This document shows positions 2,563-17,600 of a DNA stretch of 21,917 nt, piece after piece. A program made the position numbers and the translations under genes. The notes under the pieces were generated by a model, which saw only the letters and a program-made list of their open reading frames with translations, searched no databases and had not been told where the DNA came from. Within the stretch, counting starts at the first letter, position 1. The number at the start of each line of letters is the position of its first letter. This DNA comes from a virus (lineage: Duplodnaviria > Heunggongvirae > Uroviricota > Caudoviricetes). The stretch is from the IMG/VR virus record IMGVR_UViG_2751185961_000012, positions 1 to 21,917 of that record; one strand, written 5' to 3'.

Positions 2563-2587
2563 TGAAAACCCCGACGGGATGTCGGGG
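2563..2587 (-). terminator. Putative intrinsic terminator (CCCCGAC-GGGAT-GTCGGGG followed by TTTTC on minus strand)
   Basis: Perfect 7-bp GC-rich stem read directly; T-run follows on the minus strand; lies immediately downstream of the stop of the 2600..3112 gene. Confidence 0.55.
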
Positions 2588-2599
2588 TAGTGGGGGAGG

Positions 2600-3112
2600 T
2601 CAGAGGCTTAAGGTGAAGCCTTTTCGGGAATTTCGATCTGACAGTCTTGAAATATCCTGTAGCGTGCGGCGCATTTCTTCCGTCAGATGTTTGAAGGCGT
2701 TAAATTCAGCAACAGCGGCATCGACGTTATAGCCCTTGCTGTGTAGCTCGTTGAGGATGCGCATAGTTGGGCTTGGCATATCGAAGAGCACAGAAACGTC
2801 CAGGTTAAGAGTTTTTCGATCAACATAGCTCATCATGGAGTAGGGGTGATGTTCAGAAAACCACGAGAGAGGGTAGTTGATAGATAGTGTTGATTCTGGA
2901 AGCTGAAGTTGTTCTGGGATTTTTTGACTGAAATAGCAGTCTTCCAGTTTTTCGAACACATCCCACGCTAATTCAGATGTGCGTGTGCATACGACAATAA
3001 AAAACACGCTCGCGGCGTGTGTCTGTCGCGGTTGAATATCCGGGGTCTCAATCCCGACGCCAGATTTTGCTGGCGTGCGGAGAATATAATCCCGGATACG
3101 CGACGTTGTCAA
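2600..3112 (-). CDS. Paralog or remnant of the antirepressor C-terminal domain (C-terminal about 95 aa is near-identical to the C-terminus of the 12096..12734 protein)
   Basis: C-terminal region INYPLSWFSEHHPY...LFDMPSPTMRILNELHSKGYNVDAAVAEFNAFKHLTEEMRR matches 12096..12734; the annotated start is a non-ATG (TTG-type) codon, so this may be truncated or a pseudogene. Confidence 0.45.
   Translation of the reverse strand: MTTSRIRDYILRTPAKSGVGIETPDIQPRQTHAASVFFIVVCTRTSELAWDVFEKLEDCYFSQKIPEQLQLPESTLSINYPLSWFSEHHPYSMMSYVDRKTLNLDVSVLFDMPSPTMRILNELHSKGYNVDAAVAEFNAFKHLTEEMRRTLQDISRLSDRNSRKGFTLSL
2666..2882. repeat. Dispersed direct repeat copy A (about 220 bp, roughly 85-90 percent identical to 12162..12386)
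   Basis: Long runs of identical sequence read by eye, e.g. cggcgcatttcttccgtcagatg...ttgaaggcgttaaattc...ctgtgtagctcgttgaggatgcgcatagttgggcttggcatatcgaagagcac...ccacgagagagggtagttgat. Confidence 0.8.
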
Positions 3113-3179
3113 ACTGATGGCATTGCAGATCCCTACGCAATGTAATACTATGTGTTATACATTAATAACGGAACAAAAA

Positions 3180-3551
3180 ATGCGCATTTTTAAAAACGCC
3201 TGGTTTGAGCGATTTGCACGCAAAAACAAAATATCCGACCAGTCACTGCGCGAAATTGTTAAACAGGCTGATAACGGGCTTATCTCAGCAAACCTGGGTA
3301 ACGGCGTTATCAAGCAACGTCTGCCACGAGTCGGTGGCGGCAAATCTGGCGGTTATCGCACAATCATTTTCTATCGCGTCGGCACAAGGGCCTTTTTCGT
3401 ATATGCATACGCAAAAAATGAACGTGAAAATATAACCGCTACTGAGGAAAGTGCATTTCGGAAGGTGGCTCCTCACGTACTCAATCTAACAGATGAACAA
3501 CTGGCACAACTGATTCTACAGGGTCAGTTTACGGAGGTACCCAATGAGTAA
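3180..3551 (+). CDS. RelE/ParE-superfamily toxin, HigB2-like (Toxin_HigB2 type)
   Basis: Recalled HigB2 signature: glycine-rich basic block (RVGGGKSGGYRTIIFYR) followed by FFVYAYAKNEREN; toxin-first order with 8-bp overlap onto the HTH antitoxin gene; start trimmed to MRIFKNAWF. Confidence 0.7.
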   Translation: MRIFKNAWFERFARKNKISDQSLREIVKQADNGLISANLGNGVIKQRLPRVGGGKSGGYRTIIFYRVGTRAFFVYAYAKNERENITATEESAFRKVAPHVLNLTDEQLAQLILQGQFTEVPNE

Positions 3552-3864
3552 AAATTACCGCAGTGATGCGCTTGCATCCGTACATGAAATGATGGAATCG
3601 CTTCATGATATCGGCGCAGTAACGAAACAGACTATGCGAGAATTCGATGAACTCTGCCTGCAACCAGCACCTTCAATGTCTCCTGAAAGAATCCGGGAAC
3701 TCCGTGAGCGTGAACATCTGTCACAATCCGTCTTTGCCAGATACATGAATGTCAGTAAAAACCTGATATCTGACTGGGAACGCGGAGTGAAACGCCCTGG
3801 TGGTCCCGCCCTGCGACTTCTTTCCGTTATTGAAAAAAACGGGATTCAGGCCATAAATGTTTGA
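3544..3864 (+). CDS. HigA2/XRE-type helix-turn-helix antitoxin
   Basis: 106-aa protein with C-terminal XRE-like HTH (IRELREREHLSQSVFARYMNVSKNLISDWERGVKRPGGPALRLL); translationally coupled to the upstream toxin gene. Confidence 0.7.
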   Translation: MSKNYRSDALASVHEMMESLHDIGAVTKQTMREFDELCLQPAPSMSPERIRELREREHLSQSVFARYMNVSKNLISDWERGVKRPGGPALRLLSVIEKNGIQAINV

Positions 3865-3884
3865 TTACCTTCACTACCGCGCCG

Positions 3885-4166
3885 TCATTCTGGCGGCGCT
3901 TCCCCCAGAGAAGAAATATCATCACCGGATTGCCACATCCACTCCGGCCCCTGCCATCTCAGATCCGGTGAATCATTTCTCTCAGGAATAACTATTACGT
4001 TCCTTTCCATCCGCTCCCTTTCTATCGCCATCACAGCCAATGCTGCAACCATGATGTATTTTTGCTCGTCGGTTCCTGTTTCATAGCGCCACATGAGGGT
4101 AAACTCGGGGCGATCAGTAACCTCAATGATTTCGTTAATTTCTTTAATTTCGCGAGGAATATCCAT
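3885..4166 (-). CDS. Hypothetical protein, about 93 aa
   Basis: Minus-strand ORF convergent with the HigA gene; start trimmed to MDIPREIKE; its ATG overlaps the ATG of the divergent 4165..4839 gene within a CATG palindrome. Confidence 0.4.
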   Translation of the reverse strand: MDIPREIKEINEIIEVTDRPEFTLMWRYETGTDEQKYIMVAALAVMAIERERMERNVIVIPERNDSPDLRWQGPEWMWQSGDDISSLGEAPPE

Positions 4167-4839
4167 GGGTTTAGTCTCCTTTGACATTACATGCCCGCAC
4201 TGTTTAAAAGAGCGAGCTGTTATTGAGGCATTTGCCGAAAAACAAATTGAAAAAACACCTCTTTTTAACGTCGCTTTTGTATGCAGAAGTTGTCATCAAG
4301 GAGGTGTTGCTATTGTTGAAATCCCATCAGACCACTATCACGGCCCTATGGCGGAAAGCCAGAAAAAAGACCTTGATATTCTGATTTCAGGAAATAGCCA
4401 GTACCGTTTCCGCAAGATCTATCCTGCGGTCAAAAAAATTACCGCACCAGAATCTACGCCCCCGGTTGCAGACCGTACTTTTGTTGAGGCAAAAGAGGAT
4501 TTACAGAGGAGGCGGTACGACACAGTGGTTATTCTTTGTCGCAGAGTCCTCGATATCTCAACGAAAAAACTGCTCGGCGATGAAGCAGGAAAAGAATCTC
4601 TGTCGCAACGTATTCAGATGATTTACAAAAAAGGCCTGATCACTGAACAGATGAAGGAATGGGCTCATATTGTACGAATAGATGCCAATAAAGCAGTTCA
4701 TACAGATGAAGTATTCACACCAATTGAGGCAAGCCAGATACTGAGTTTTACCGAAATGTTTTTAGTCTACGCCTTCACTCTGCCTGCAATGGTGGAAGCC
4801 AGATGTGACCAAAAAAGATCAGATTCAGCCTCTATATGA
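4165..4839 (+). CDS. Zinc-ribbon plus DUF4145-domain protein (candidate defence or regulatory effector), about 224 aa
   Basis: N-terminal Cys pairs CPHC ... CRSC; C-terminal half matches the recalled DUF4145 pattern (RRVLDISTKKLLGD ... LSQRIQMIYKKGLI ... AHIVRIDANKAVH ... LSFTEMFLVYAF); the upstream part of the long ORF (4093..) is antisense junk, so the start is placed at MGLVSFD. Confidence 0.65.
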   Translation: MGLVSFDITCPHCLKERAVIEAFAEKQIEKTPLFNVAFVCRSCHQGGVAIVEIPSDHYHGPMAESQKKDLDILISGNSQYRFRKIYPAVKKITAPESTPPVADRTFVEAKEDLQRRRYDTVVILCRRVLDISTKKLLGDEAGKESLSQRIQMIYKKGLITEQMKEWAHIVRIDANKAVHTDEVFTPIEASQILSFTEMFLVYAFTLPAMVEARCDQKRSDSASI

Positions 4840-12095: not shown

Positions 12096-12734
12096 TTAAA
12101 GATTAACGTTGAAACCAAAGCGGGAAGACTTTTCCGATGTGCGGGAAATATCCAGCAATTTACGGCGCATTTCTTCCGTCAGATGCTTGAAGGCGTTAAA
12201 TTCGGCGACAGCGGCGTCAACGTTATAGCCTTTGCTGTGTAGCTCGTTGAGGATGCGCATAGTTGGGCTTGGCATATCGAAGAGCACGGAAGCATCAAGG
12301 CTGATAACCTTGCGATCAACATAGTTCATCGTGGCGTAGGGATGGTTATCTGAGAACCACGAGAGAGGGTAGTTGATGTTCATTGGTGCAGGTAAAAGGC
12401 TCTGGCGAAGTTTCTTTTCGCACTCGATGAAGTATCGGCGTATCTGGCGGCCTTTTTCGTTACGTTCAACCATCGCAAGCTCTTTGGCTGTATCGAGAGT
12501 GAGGTGGTAGTCCTTGCGGTTGTGACCGCCTCTACCTTTTCTTTGCTCCCCCGTTTTGGGGAGCAAAATAAAATCTTGGTTTTCTGTAAATTCATACTCG
12601 GAGATGCGGATTCGTATCCACGTGGAAAAGTCTTTTCCGACTTCGAGAAACGCGTGTAAATCACGGGCATTACAGAACAGGGTAGTTTCGTTGTCGATAG
12701 TGCCGTTGAATACGGGGATGAGTTGAGAGTTCAT
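12096..12734 (-). CDS. Phage antirepressor, AntA-type N-terminal domain plus shared C-terminal domain
   Basis: N-terminal block LIPVFNG...ARDLHAFLEVGKDFSTWIRIRISEYEFTENQDF...YHLTLDTAKELAMVERNEKGRQIRRYFIECEK matches the AntA antirepressor domain; C-terminal 95 aa duplicated at 2600..3112. Confidence 0.75.
   Translation of the reverse strand: MNSQLIPVFNGTIDNETTLFCNARDLHAFLEVGKDFSTWIRIRISEYEFTENQDFILLPKTGEQRKGRGGHNRKDYHLTLDTAKELAMVERNEKGRQIRRYFIECEKKLRQSLLPAPMNINYPLSWFSDNHPYATMNYVDRKVISLDASVLFDMPSPTMRILNELHSKGYNVDAAVAEFNAFKHLTEEMRRKLLDISRTSEKSSRFGFNVNL
12162..12386. repeat. Dispersed direct repeat copy B (partner of 2666..2882)
   Basis: See copy A; same orientation, about 9.5 kb apart. Confidence 0.8.
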
Positions 12735-16587: not shown

Positions 16588-17301
16588 TCAATCAAAAGTA
16601 TCATCATTCCACTGCGATTTGATGACCTTTCCGACAAACTGGCAGTTTTCGTTACACTCAATCATGTCGAATCGTGGGTTGAGCGGCTCCAGGTACGCTT
16701 TACCGCTCTCACGAATGAATCGTTTGAAGGTGAATTCATCGCCGTTCATTCGGGCCACGCAAAAATCGCCATCCTCGATTTCCCGTTCAGGGTCAACGAG
16801 TATCAGCATACCTTCAGGGAAGCTGGGTTTACCTCCCTGTGGCGCGGTCATTGAATGCCCCTTAACTTCCAGCCAGAACGACCTGTTACTGGCTTTTGTG
16901 GTGGTGGAGATCCACTTAATCGCATCCTTTGCGGTGTACGAAATATCATCCATTGTGAATGCGCCAGCCTGTACGCAGGAGAGTAACGGATATTCGTAAG
17001 CAGGGACACGAGTTAATGGCTCTTCAATCGCGAGCGCCATTTCTGCAATAGATTTTGCCAAGCTGGGGCTGAAATCTCCGACCTTTACATTCAGTAACTT
17101 AGCAAGCTGCGCTGCGTGACTGGCATTTATGGCGTTGATGCCAGCCATTAGCTGATTAACGGCACTTTGGGTAACACCTAGTTCATAGGCTAATGACTCC
17201 TGTGACAAGCCTAACTCTTTCTTTTTAGCGATGAAAATGCTTTTAAGACGCTTGGCGTCTTCCAGTTGCTCAGGGGTTAACGGTTTCTTTTTCATGTTCA
17301 T
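16588..17301 (-). CDS. cI: Lambda-type CI repressor (N-terminal HTH, C-terminal S24/LexA-like autocleavage domain)
   Basis: 237 aa, collinear with lambda CI as recalled ([17 protein letters not shown] ... LGLSQESLA ... [31 protein letters not shown] ... [19 protein letters not shown] ... LEPLNP); divergent from cro. Confidence 0.9.
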
Positions 17302-17396
17302 ACCATATCACCTTTGGTTATATGTAATGAAATATCTGCGGTGTTGACACTTTAATAACTGTGCGTAATGATATGGGCATTTTGAAGGAGTCAGTT
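17302..17396. promoter_or_regulatory. cI-cro intergenic switch region: operator-like sites, rightward promoter and Shine-Dalgarno for cro
   Basis: Lambda-like operator half-sites (TATCACC in TATCACCTTTGGTTATA; CTGCGGTG resembling lambda CTGGCGGTG); perfect -35 TTGACA at about 17344-17349 with a weaker -10 (AATGAT/TAATGA) 16-17 nt downstream; AAGGAG at 17385-17390. Confidence 0.6.
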
Positions 17397-17600
17397 ATGG
17401 CGATGAAAAAAGAGACCCTGGCTGATTACGTATACAGGTTCGGTCAGAAGAAAGCCGCTAAGGACTTTGGTGTGGCGCAGAGCGCGATCAGTAAAGCGCT
17501 TCTTGTCGGACGTGAAATTTACGTCAAAACCTTTGATGACGGCAGAGTTGAGGCGGAAGAGGTTCGACCGTTCCCTGCGTTCGTAAGAGGCGATGATTAA
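17397..17600 (+). CDS. cro: Cro-like repressor
   Basis: About 67 aa with lambda Cro-like blocks ([28 protein letters not shown] ... [12 protein letters not shown]); AAGGAG Shine-Dalgarno 6 nt upstream of ATG at 17397. Confidence 0.75.

Follow-up and report, generated by a model that had tools for sequence, protein, structure and literature searches.

Positions 3141 to 3864 of the 21,917-nt stretch of DNA analysed here (the window) very probably form a self-contained type II toxin-antitoxin (TA) cassette of the HigBA-2 family, consisting of a PF06296 toxin and an antitoxin with an XRE-type helix-turn-helix (HTH). As a moron (optional cargo) of an E. coli lambda-like prophage it sits in a slot whose content varies among lambdoid prophages. 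The cassette is an ordinary one, and RefSeq already labels identical proteins as components of type II TA systems. An earlier note on this DNA had described a HigB2/HigA2-like TA module, and that description is upheld by the family HMM, the nearest structures, the predicted folds, the catalytic residues, the gene order and an operator-like palindrome. For both proteins the nearest solved structures, by sequence as well as by predicted fold, come from one V. cholerae HigB2-HigA2 complex. In the literature no experiments on any member of the E. coli lineage of this cassette were found. The features relevant for the following description are:

2568-2588, minus strand: terminator of the antirepressor remnant (terminator scan)
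3112-3083, minus strand: isrK promoter, sigma-70, 11/12 match (promoter scan)
3123-3151, plus strand: candidate TA promoter, TTGCAG (3123-3128), 17-nt spacer, TACTAT (3146-3151) (read from the sequence)
3141-3159, no strand assigned: predicted operator, 19-bp inverted repeat TGTAATAC-TAT-GTGTTATA (conservation, co-variation)
3153-3161, plus strand: alternative extended -10, TGtTATACA (read from the sequence)
3180-3551, plus strand: higB2-like toxin gene, intact, 123 aa (PF06296 match, homology)
3533-3537, plus strand: GGAGG Shine-Dalgarno sequence for the antitoxin, within the 3' end of the toxin gene (sequence)
3544-3864, plus strand: higA2-like antitoxin gene, 106 aa (HTH_3 match, HigA2 homology)
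3879-3899, plus strand: GC-rich hairpin after the antitoxin stop, 9-bp stem and 3-nt loop (folding)
4165-4839, plus strand: DUF4145 gene, after the TA genes (window annotation)
16588-17301, minus strand: cI-like repressor (window annotation)
17361-17600, plus strand: Cro (window annotation)

With Pfam matches at E 1.5e-46 (toxin, PF06296) and 3.5e-9 (antitoxin, HTH_3) the ORFs of the pair are far from chance. They form a toxin-first, overlapping pair on the plus strand, exactly as delimited previously, and share the 8 nt ATGAGTAA (3544-3551). The Shine-Dalgarno sequence of the antitoxin lies 6 nt before its ATG; that of the toxin is GGA (3170-3172) and is weaker than the GGAGG of the antitoxin. 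Of 80 species-level loci, 77 show the same arrangement, toxin then antitoxin on one strand, and the remaining ones end near the toxin gene; small overlaps of the two genes are present in most pairs.

The toxin matches PF06296 over the whole profile (positions 1-120 of 120) with 158 bits at a cut-off of 27, and the family is also carried by all 120 homologues among the matches listed. PF06296 was the sole family reported for the toxin in a Pfam search at E <= 0.01. The assignment of Toxin_HigB2 to PF09907 in the earlier note therefore has to be corrected, since the toxin has no PF09907 match at this threshold. PF06296 includes V. cholerae HigB-2, and PF09907 is the family of E. coli K-12 HigB/YgjN (PMC11980606, Table 1). 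A longer ORF of 144 aa, starting from the ATG at 3117, was rejected because the profile and all homologues begin with MRIFKNAWF, at position 3180. The exact toxin protein is found on 114 public contigs under the name type II TA RelE/ParE family toxin.

The best-matching PDB sequences for the toxin are those of V. cholerae HigB-2. Its AF2 model is of moderate confidence (pLDDT 71, pTM 0.67). In a Foldseek search of this model against the PDB the top six matches are V. cholerae HigB2 chains (probability 0.99-1.0, TM 0.50-0.64), followed by M. tuberculosis HigB1. The phmmer alignment places R47, R60, Y77 and K79 of the toxin at the positions of the catalytic residues R51, R64, Y82 and K84 of V. 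cholerae HigB2 (VcHigB2), and all four are identical. The importance of these VcHigB2 residues was shown by mutagenesis (PMC5416850). All 37 homologues compared have R60, and conservation of R47 and K79 reaches at least 90%. At position 77 most homologues have Phe, and Y75, on the same face of the strand, is at least 90% conserved. This nearly invariant Y75 may be the functional tyrosine of the toxin instead of Y77. The HigB2-type glycine-rich block recognized earlier is indeed present and comprises residues 49-59 (PRVGGGKSGGY).

In the antitoxin, the XRE-type HTH suggested before is located at the C-terminus (about residues 44-100). The N-terminal region (residues 8-39) is predicted to form two helices, 8-22 and 28-39. 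V. cholerae HigA-2 is the best-matching PDB sequence (E 1e-7), and the top eight PDB matches of the AF2 model (pLDDT 81) are all HigA2. In the model the C-terminal domain superposes on HigA2 with an rmsd of 1.0-1.5 Å and a TM of 0.84. An MqsA-type HTH, also considered in the earlier note, is ruled out: PF15731 scores 18.8 bits at a cut-off of 30, and only over the HTH part of the profile (66-122), and TIGR03830 scores 34.5 at a cut-off of 61.8. The antitoxin has a single cysteine and no CxxC motif and hence no N-terminal CxxCG zinc ribbon. The exact antitoxin occurs on 161 public contigs. In 75 of 77 species-level loci it is the better conserved of the two proteins, with a mean identity to the window pair of 71% compared with 58% for the toxin.

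Upstream of the toxin gene a 19-bp inverted repeat (3141-3159) is the predicted operator. The consensus of the family is TRTMAYAC-N3-GTRTKAYA, with which the repeat of the window agrees at every constrained position; as a palindrome it is imperfect, since 6 of 8 arm positions pair and two are mismatched. The motif AAYAC-N3-GTGTT has one match in the 21.9-kb window (0.12 expected), and this match is the predicted operator. The perfect form is present as a single copy in each of 32 loci among 48 related ones, and in every case it closely precedes the toxin. In 47 of 76 species-level loci the core AYAC-N3-GTRT precedes the toxin ATG by 31-48 nt, compared with 7 matches in 424 kb of flanking sequence, and its position upstream of the toxin is conserved across many phyla. 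Moreover, the half-site co-varies with the recognition helix of the antitoxin: AYAC is accompanied by SKN..D..V and GCAC by T[ST][SG]..[KQ]..E. The latter combination concerns six loci with the half-site GCAC..GTGC, in which the recognition-helix residues at positions 73, 77 and 82 are changed. These positions are equivalent to the base-contacting R68, N72 and R77 of HigA2 from V. cholerae (VcHigA2) (PMC11006873). The antitoxin is predicted to bind the 3141-3159 repeat. The palindrome AATGTA/TACATT that the earlier note had proposed as operator does exist (3139-3144 and 3158-3163). As an operator, however, it was rejected: it is not conserved in O157-type loci and overlaps the conserved 19-bp repeat, which is centred 1 nt away.

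The region 3113-3179 is divergent, as had been assumed, with the minus-strand isrK promoter on its other side. For the TA genes a consensus scan of the plus strand gave no promoter at 9/12 or better, and the candidate TA promoter is therefore a tentative assignment. Both candidate -10 elements overlap the predicted operator; the V. cholerae higBA2 operator likewise overlaps the -10 (PMC11006873). A consensus plus-strand promoter was dropped for lack of such a match, and the -35 candidates lie at varying distances in the three E. coli upstream types. SOS control has been reported for the chromosomal higB-2 of Salmonella, with a LexA box at the promoter. For the cassette described here LexA/SOS control was rejected, because no CTGT-N8-ACAG with at most one mismatch occurs within 3000-3900. 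Elsewhere in the window this motif has 7 matches, with 7.3 expected, and a CTG-N9-CAG at 3114-3128 has the wrong spacing for a LexA box.

The module had also been described as bracketed by terminators, which does not hold. The left terminator is real, but it lies on the minus strand and ends the antirepressor remnant rather than the TA genes. The right hairpin exists as well, at 3879-3899 rather than at 3865-3885. Its centroid energy is -16.5 kcal/mol (z -2.48). The stem is followed by UU only, and the terminator scan did not call it. The hairpin overlaps the 3' end of a minus-strand ORF (3885-4187) and lies outside the block conserved between lineages, which extends from about 3141 to about 3872 only; sequences past about 3872 differ. 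Without a U-tract and without conservation it was rejected as the terminator of the module and is a weak terminator at best.

Within the prophage the cassette is located in the distal leftward early region, where it is counter-oriented and divergent from the adjoining promoter of the small RNA IsrK. The left terminator is separated from the TA genes by the antirepressor remnant and the isrK sRNA gene, and the antirepressor operon has suffered a 437-bp deletion. Leftward of cI, the genes encoding RecT, antirepressor and methylase all run on the minus strand. The earlier view of a module embedded among minus-strand early genes is therefore right as to its counter-orientation, but the cassette is not the sole plus-strand content, as the DUF4145 gene shares this strand. 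The DUF4145 protein has a weak PD-T7-4 match in PADLOC. The int/xis end of the prophage is about 3 kb away from the module.

Related prophages carry the TA module in one of two places, the distal leftward region or the nin region, beside hokD and doc. In a Stx2a phage the homology ends just upstream of the isrK promoter; a ParD-like/XRE cassette occupies the slot there. The module is present in 217 complete E. coli genomes. All 224 E. coli copies are chromosomal, and each copy examined lies in a prophage. Among 50,697 deposited phage genomes a single one contains the module, with a frameshifted toxin. Of 46 related E. coli prophage loci, 19 (41%) have a toxin broken by a frameshift, at one of four sites. 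One natural frameshift allele has A4 in place of A5. The window copy is intact, and the truncated forms are each present on hundreds of public contigs. None of the 46 E. coli-type loci has a broken antitoxin ORF. The diverged O157-type toxin is 85% identical to that of the window. For frameshifts placed at random over the 693 coding nt, the bias towards the toxin is weakly significant (P about 0.08, four sites). That the toxin is lost repeatedly while the antitoxin is kept would be an indirect pointer to toxicity. Since toxin decay is frequent in the relatives, an active toxin is under weak or intermittent selection. A link between an intact toxin and the loss of the neighbouring antirepressor was considered and rejected, as both are intact in SCU-104, 2013C-3033, JNEC-KY203 and L010.

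The closest characterized system is HigB-2/HigA-2 of V. cholerae (VCA0468/0469; PDB entries 5JAA, 5JA8, 5J9I and 8A0X). Both systems share the toxin family PF06296, the toxin-first order, a RelE-like fold with a basic, Gly-rich β2-β3 loop and the Arg/Arg/Tyr/Lys catalytic positions. In both antitoxins a C-terminal XRE-type HTH domain for dimerisation follows an N-terminal region that neutralises the toxin, here by prediction. In V. cholerae the operator is a single 19-bp inverted repeat over the -10, as predicted here. Identity to the V. cholerae pair is nevertheless only about 20-25% for the toxin and 24-32% for the antitoxin in structural alignments, and the toxin of the window is 13 aa longer. 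The operators differ as well, TGTAATAC-N3-GTGTTATA here and TGTACGC-N5-GCGTACA in V. cholerae, and so do all four base-contacting residues (N73, S76, D77 and V82 here; R68, E71, N72 and R77 in VcHigA2). Furthermore, the V. cholerae pair belongs to a superintegron, whereas the window pair is part of a prophage. The A. baumannii 'HigBA2Ab' was set aside as a characterized relative, because its name reflects the authors' own numbering.

More distant systems share single properties with the cassette. E. coli K-12 RelE/RelB belongs to the same superfamily, with the same proposed ribosome-dependent mRNA cleavage in the A site, and the active site of VcHigB2 was described as almost identical to that of RelE (PMC5416850). 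In RelE/RelB, however, the antitoxin gene comes first, RelB is a ribbon-helix-helix protein and RelE is filed under PF05016 (PMC11980606). No significant sequence match was found between the window toxin and E. coli K-12 RelE. HigB/HigA of plasmid Rts1 (PF05015) and E. coli K-12 HigB/YgjN (PF09907) have the toxin-first order, an HTH antitoxin and a RelE-superfamily toxin, but belong to other Pfam families, neither of which is matched by the window toxin at E <= 0.01. HigB from Rts1 lacks the C-terminal helix and is a more remote structural relative of HigB2 (PMC5416850). MqsR/MqsA is also toxin-first, and the C-terminal HTH of the window antitoxin resembles MqsA in weak matches; the latter remain below the curated cut-offs, the zinc ribbon is missing and the window toxin is outside the MqsR family. 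The same niche, accessory slots of lambdoid prophages, is used by paaR2-paaA2-parE2 (CP-933P), hokW-sokW (Sp5), hokD and phd/doc, and hokD and doc adjoin the module in O104:H4-type and O157 prophages. These modules have unrelated toxin families and regulation and, unlike the window cassette, were studied experimentally.

By analogy to V. cholerae HigBA2, a single transcript starting beside the operator would encode the toxin and then the antitoxin, the latter from a start codon within the overlap and with a superior ribosome-binding site. The toxin would be an endonuclease of the RelE fold that depends on the ribosome and cleaves mRNA under translation in the A site. Its putative active site comprises R47, R60, Y75 or Y77, and K79, and the basic glycine-rich loop may contact the ribosome. 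The N-terminal region of the antitoxin presumably wraps around the toxin and inactivates it, while the C-terminal HTH would dimerise and bind 3141-3159 over the -10 region, resulting in repression of the operon. If synthesis stops, the labile antitoxin would be lost and the toxin would arrest translation. The phage might benefit by retention of the prophage or by exclusion of other phages; alternatively, only the cassette's own persistence would be served.

Several explanations for the presence of the cassette have to be weighed. A prophage addiction or stabilisation module, with the longer-lived toxin poisoning cells from which the prophage or this region has been lost or excised, is a possible but doubtful one. 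V. cholerae higBA loci can stabilise plasmids (PMC11980606), the module is close to the int/xis end, and the E. coli copies are without exception chromosomal and, where examined, prophage-borne. On the other hand, the toxin is often inactivated while the prophage region is kept, and the decayed neighbours in the window, with the deletion in the antirepressor operon, indicate that local erosion was not prevented. An anti-phage (abortive infection) or superinfection-exclusion system appears unlikely. Here an infecting phage would halt host transcription, the antitoxin would be depleted and the freed toxin would stop translation before the invader finishes. The moron slots shared with hokD, doc and the DUF4145 protein with its weak PD-T7-4 match are consistent with such a system, and RelE-superfamily toxins are treated as defence toxins in PMC11980606. 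In addition, a separate promoter region and an orientation opposed to the lytic transcript could allow the cassette to be expressed in the lysogen. The PADLOC models argue against defence, as PADLOC-DB gave 0 matches for the toxin and generic HTH matches only (RmrA, control proteins) for the antitoxin. Furthermore, the HigBA-2 family is mostly chromosomal across many phyla, and a dead toxin in 41% of related loci would be odd under steady defence selection.

To judge from the conservation data, which show an operator nearly fixed across phyla, the antitoxin-operator pair, and not the toxin, is the most constrained part of the family. The selected part could be the antitoxin with its operator, as a transcription factor or as an 'anti-addiction' immunity factor directed at homologous toxins of incoming elements, and the toxin dispensable baggage. 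We regard this as quite unlikely, even though 19 of 46 loci have a broken toxin and none a broken antitoxin, the antitoxin is better conserved in 75 of 77 species-level loci and the truncated toxins are each so widespread on public contigs. The operator motif occurs once in the window, at the TA promoter, with no other cis target visible; the toxin-only frameshift bias is weakly significant; and the window toxin is intact with its catalytic residues. Very unlikely is a neutral, decaying remnant that is inactive in the window phage. The frequent frameshifts in the toxins of relatives, the two arm mismatches of the window operator and the lack of a strong promoter would fit a remnant. Both ORFs are intact, however, all aligned catalytic residues are present, the exact proteins recur on 114 (toxin) and 161 (antitoxin) contigs, and the operator agrees with the family consensus at all constrained positions. 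Finally, it seems rather improbable that prophage copies owe their retention mainly to a role in cross-immunity ('anti-addiction') or as sensors, with a position opposed to the antiterminated leftward transcript and divergent from the isrK promoter coupling toxin release to induction of the prophage or to shut-off by an invading phage. If this were true, the cassette would be a lysogeny-state switch or an abortive-infection device and not a plain addiction module.

As found, the type II TA cassette of the window adds little: RefSeq already lists its exact proteins, the toxin as a RelE/ParE-family member and the antitoxin as an HTH protein, and the mechanism of the prototype has been worked out. 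Three points may interest workers on TA systems and phages. There is evidence that differing TA cassettes are exchanged in the slot divergent from the IsrK/antirepressor module in lambdoid and Stx phages. The predicted operator of the large PF06296/HigA2-like family is concrete and testable and comes with a natural specificity switch. E. coli pathogens (O104:H4, O157, O145 and O103) carry a natural series of toxin alleles, some intact and some frameshifted, with which the function of prophage TA modules can be approached.

The plus-strand gene pair of the window was proposed by the earlier note to be a HigB2/HigA2-like toxin-antitoxin (TA) module. From its family profile, PDB sequence matches, model folds and aligned active-site residues, this label is therefore correct, and the two ORFs placed at 3180-3864 were located exactly:

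3180-3551, plus strand: toxin ORF, 123 aa
3544-3864, plus strand: antitoxin ORF, 106 aa
3170-3172, plus strand: the toxin's own GGA, weak by sequence
3533-3537, plus strand: GGAGG, 6 nt ahead of the antitoxin ATG

The ORFs overlap by 8 nt (ATGAGTAA). A 144-aa toxin reading from ATG 3117 was rejected, since the family profile and all homologues begin with MRIFKNAWF.

The toxin covers the entire Pfam profile PF06296 ('RelE', formerly DUF1044; 158 bits, E 1.5e-46), in which HigB-2 from Vibrio cholerae was placed by a 2025 survey of the RelE/ParE superfamily (PMC11980606). PF09907, the family originally suggested, is that of E. coli K-12 HigB/YgjN (PMC11980606) and was not matched. A comparison with all PDB sequences puts HigB-2 first for the toxin, at E 3e-3, and HigA-2 first for the antitoxin, at E 1e-7; these best matches are two chains of one solved complex. 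For the AlphaFold2 model of the toxin (pLDDT 71), Foldseek ranks HigB2 chains in the first six places (TM 0.50-0.64). By mutagenesis, the active site of V. cholerae HigB-2 comprises R51, R64, Y82 and K84, and its basic Gly-rich β2-β3 loop is also important (PMC5416850). In the PDB sequence alignment these residues correspond to R47, R60, Y77 and K79 of our toxin, and its loop PRVGGGKSGGY aligns with the Gly-rich loop. Across 37 toxin homologues R60 never varies, and conservation is at least 90% at R47 and K79; most homologues carry Phe at position 77, and Y75, which lies on the same strand, is also conserved to at least 90%.

The antitoxin carries an XRE-type HTH (HTH_3, E 3.5e-9). HigA2 accounts for the eight best structure matches of its model (pLDDT 81), with the C-terminal domain superposing at 1.0-1.5 Å. 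An MqsA-type antitoxin was rejected: the matches to MqsA models score under threshold and are confined to the HTH part. By homology to V. cholerae HigBA2, the toxin is predicted to be a ribosome-dependent mRNA endonuclease and to be neutralised by the N-terminal region of the antitoxin, with repression of the TA operon by the HTH dimer predicted at 3141-3159.

The window is an E. coli lambdoid prophage; in this region it shares ~99% identity with Escherichia phage PhiR12_3 (from ECOR13). The relevant landmarks are:

16588-17301, minus strand: cI-like S24 repressor
17361-17600, plus strand: Cro
2999-3076, minus strand: complete IsrK sRNA gene (Rfam RF01394, 73.6 bits vs gathering score 50)
3112-3107 (TTGACA) and 3088-3083 (TATATT), minus strand: isrK sigma-70 promoter, 11/12
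3020-3004, minus strand: isrK terminator

Helicase and primase genes mark the rightward side, and RecT, AntA/B antirepressor, Roi and MT-A70 methylase genes lie leftward on the minus strand. From this layout around cI/Cro, the TA pair is therefore counter-oriented in the distal leftward early region, as had been claimed. The isrK gene adjoins the upstream side of the pair, back to back with its control region; because isrK has its own promoter on the minus strand, 3113-3179 is truly divergent. The supposed bracketing by terminators is inaccurate. There is a genuine terminator at 2568-2588, but it is that of the minus-strand antirepressor gene, and the right-hand hairpin, which sits at 3879-3899, shows neither a U-tract nor conservation.

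The IsrK of Salmonella Gifsy-1 controls orf45-anrP translation and, via AnrP, the AntQ antiterminator (PMC4825925). About 437 bp kept in the closest relatives (the compared locus L010, 99.94% identical; PhiR12_3; the O104:H4 prophage) are absent from the window. This deletion (junction 2962-2968, minus strand, with a flanking 7-nt repeat CCCACGC) takes out orf45 together with one third, at the 5' end, of the ORF6N/AnrP-type antirepressor gene. Consequently, the 170-aa ORF at 2600-3112 (minus strand), which reads through isrK, is a chimeric remnant, and isrK is without a cis target. A second sRNA-plus-antirepressor pair is present in the prophage: an Rfam sRNA-Xcc1 match (RF02221, 12775-12863, minus strand, 65.9 bits vs gathering score 53) directly upstream of an AntA/B-domain gene (12096-12734, minus strand), part of which is 86-88% identical to the antirepressor adjoining the TA pair.

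A second plus-strand cargo gene (4165-4839) encodes a protein of 224 aa whose N-terminal part has two CxxC motifs; the protein also contains a DUF4145 domain (E 3e-9) and weakly matches PADLOC PD-T7-4 (E 9e-4). The gene is divergent to a minus-strand ORF without family match (3885-4166/4187); their start codons overlap in a CCATGG palindrome (4163-4168), leaving no intergenic promoter space. Elsewhere, overlapping minus-strand ORFs contain the short peptide repeats QPVQPVQPVQ (913-1182) and CSQCSQCSQCS (1044-1283); these translations imply a putative 9-nt tandem repeat near 1050-1090 in a DUF1627-like gene region.

Three E. coli lineages with unrelated flanks were compared (window type, O157 type and a third type). 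Their similarity is confined to a stretch that starts at ~3141 and ends a few bases beyond the antitoxin stop. The pair occupies two positions, one between the int/xis end and recombination genes (window, SCU-104, JNEC-KY203) and the other in the nin region beside hokD, doc and antirepressor genes (O104:H4, O157, ML35, a Stx1 prophage). Homology between the window and Stx2a phage F765 (L129) ends just upstream of the isrK promoter, and the isrK-divergent slot in Stx2a phages is occupied by genes for a ParD-like antitoxin (PF03693), a protein of 90 aa and an XRE protein of 101 aa (L129 3604-4581). Judged from sequence, the TA cassette is a swap-in moron. The 101-aa XRE protein, named 'HigA family antitoxin', also sits after the HigBA2-like pair in SCU-104 (L003 5814-6119) and JNEC-KY203 (L005 5392-5697), where it is apparently an orphan.

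The sole upstream stretch common to the three lineages is TGTAAyACTATGTGTTATA (TGTCACACTATGTATTACA in the third), an 8-3-8 inverted repeat. In the window it reads:

3141-3159: predicted operator, TGTAATAC-TAT-GTGTTATA

AAYAC-N3-GTGTT has 1 match in the window vs 0.12 expected, and the perfect form AACAC-N3-GTGTT occurs once per locus in 32/48 loci, every time just upstream of the toxin. Of 76 species-level loci sampled across many phyla, 47 have the core AYAC-N3-GTRT at a distance of 31-48 nt ahead of the toxin start, and 72 have a looser form; the flanks, 424 kb in all, contain 7 core occurrences. Sequence and distance to the toxin start are near-constant from Gammaproteobacteria to Acidobacteriota, Cyanobacteria and Spirochaetota (genome loci L049-L128), and the window agrees with the consensus TRTMAYAC-N3-GTRTKAYA at every constrained position. 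The palindrome AATGTA..TACATT, suggested earlier as a possible operator, overlaps this 19-bp repeat with its centre shifted by one base, and it lacks conservation.

Six loci, probably reflecting one or two evolutionary events, have half-sites GCAC..GTGC together with a recognition helix NVT[ST][SG]LVS[KQ]WERGEK vs the usual NVSKNL[VI]SDWERG[VI]K. The changed helix positions 73, 77 and 82 correspond to R68, N72 and R77 in V. cholerae HigA-2, residues that make base contacts in its crystal structure (PMC11006873). This match strongly supports the prediction that the antitoxin reads the 19-bp repeat. In V. cholerae the operator, TGTACGC-N5-GCGTACA, likewise spans 19 bp and overlaps the -10 region but has a different sequence, which fits the observation that all four base-contacting residues of HigA-2 differ in our antitoxin. 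The best TA promoter candidates are TTGCAG-17-TACTAT (3123-3151) or an extended -10 at 3153-3161; the promoter scan gave no candidate at its threshold, and a LexA box was absent near the TA promoter.

By DNA similarity the module is present in 217 of 5,426 complete E. coli genomes, always chromosomal, and in one of 50,697 deposited phage genomes (PhiR12_3), where the toxin is frameshifted. The toxin of the window is intact; 114 public contigs carry it unchanged, under the name 'type II toxin-antitoxin system RelE/ParE family toxin', and 161 carry the identical antitoxin, named 'helix-turn-helix domain-containing protein'. In 46 related E. coli-type loci (9 from complete E. coli genomes or PhiR12_3, 37 from IMG/VR) the antitoxin ORF is always intact, and the toxin ORF is broken in 19, O104:H4 outbreak strains and PhiR12_3 included. 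Frameshifted loci include L001 (4332), L002 (6737 and 6980), L006, L008 (near 5098) and L009 as well as the IMG/VR loci L025-L027 and L036-L046. The sites are:

3221-3225: -1, A-run
near 3275: +1, G-run
near 3448: -1
near 3466: -1

Each truncated product occurs on hundreds to more than 1,000 public contigs, and RefSeq lists the fragments as ordinary toxin CDSs, not pseudogenes. With four independent sites (~P = 0.08 if random over both genes), the bias towards toxin-only breakage is suggestive but not decisive. Across many phyla the antitoxin is conserved above the toxin in 75/77 loci (mean 71% vs 58% identity to the window pair). An antitoxin-centred function and neutral decay are both compatible readings. 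So is a phage role in addiction, and likewise one in exclusion or abortive infection. The toxin matched no defence model of the PADLOC library.

The TA reading is real and was rightly interpreted, and a literature search found no published work on this E. coli lineage. Within a known TA family the module is ordinary and has already been annotated; it adds minor new points: a conserved operator with co-variation of recognition helix and half-sites, the toxin-only decay pattern, and a TA slot beside isrK.
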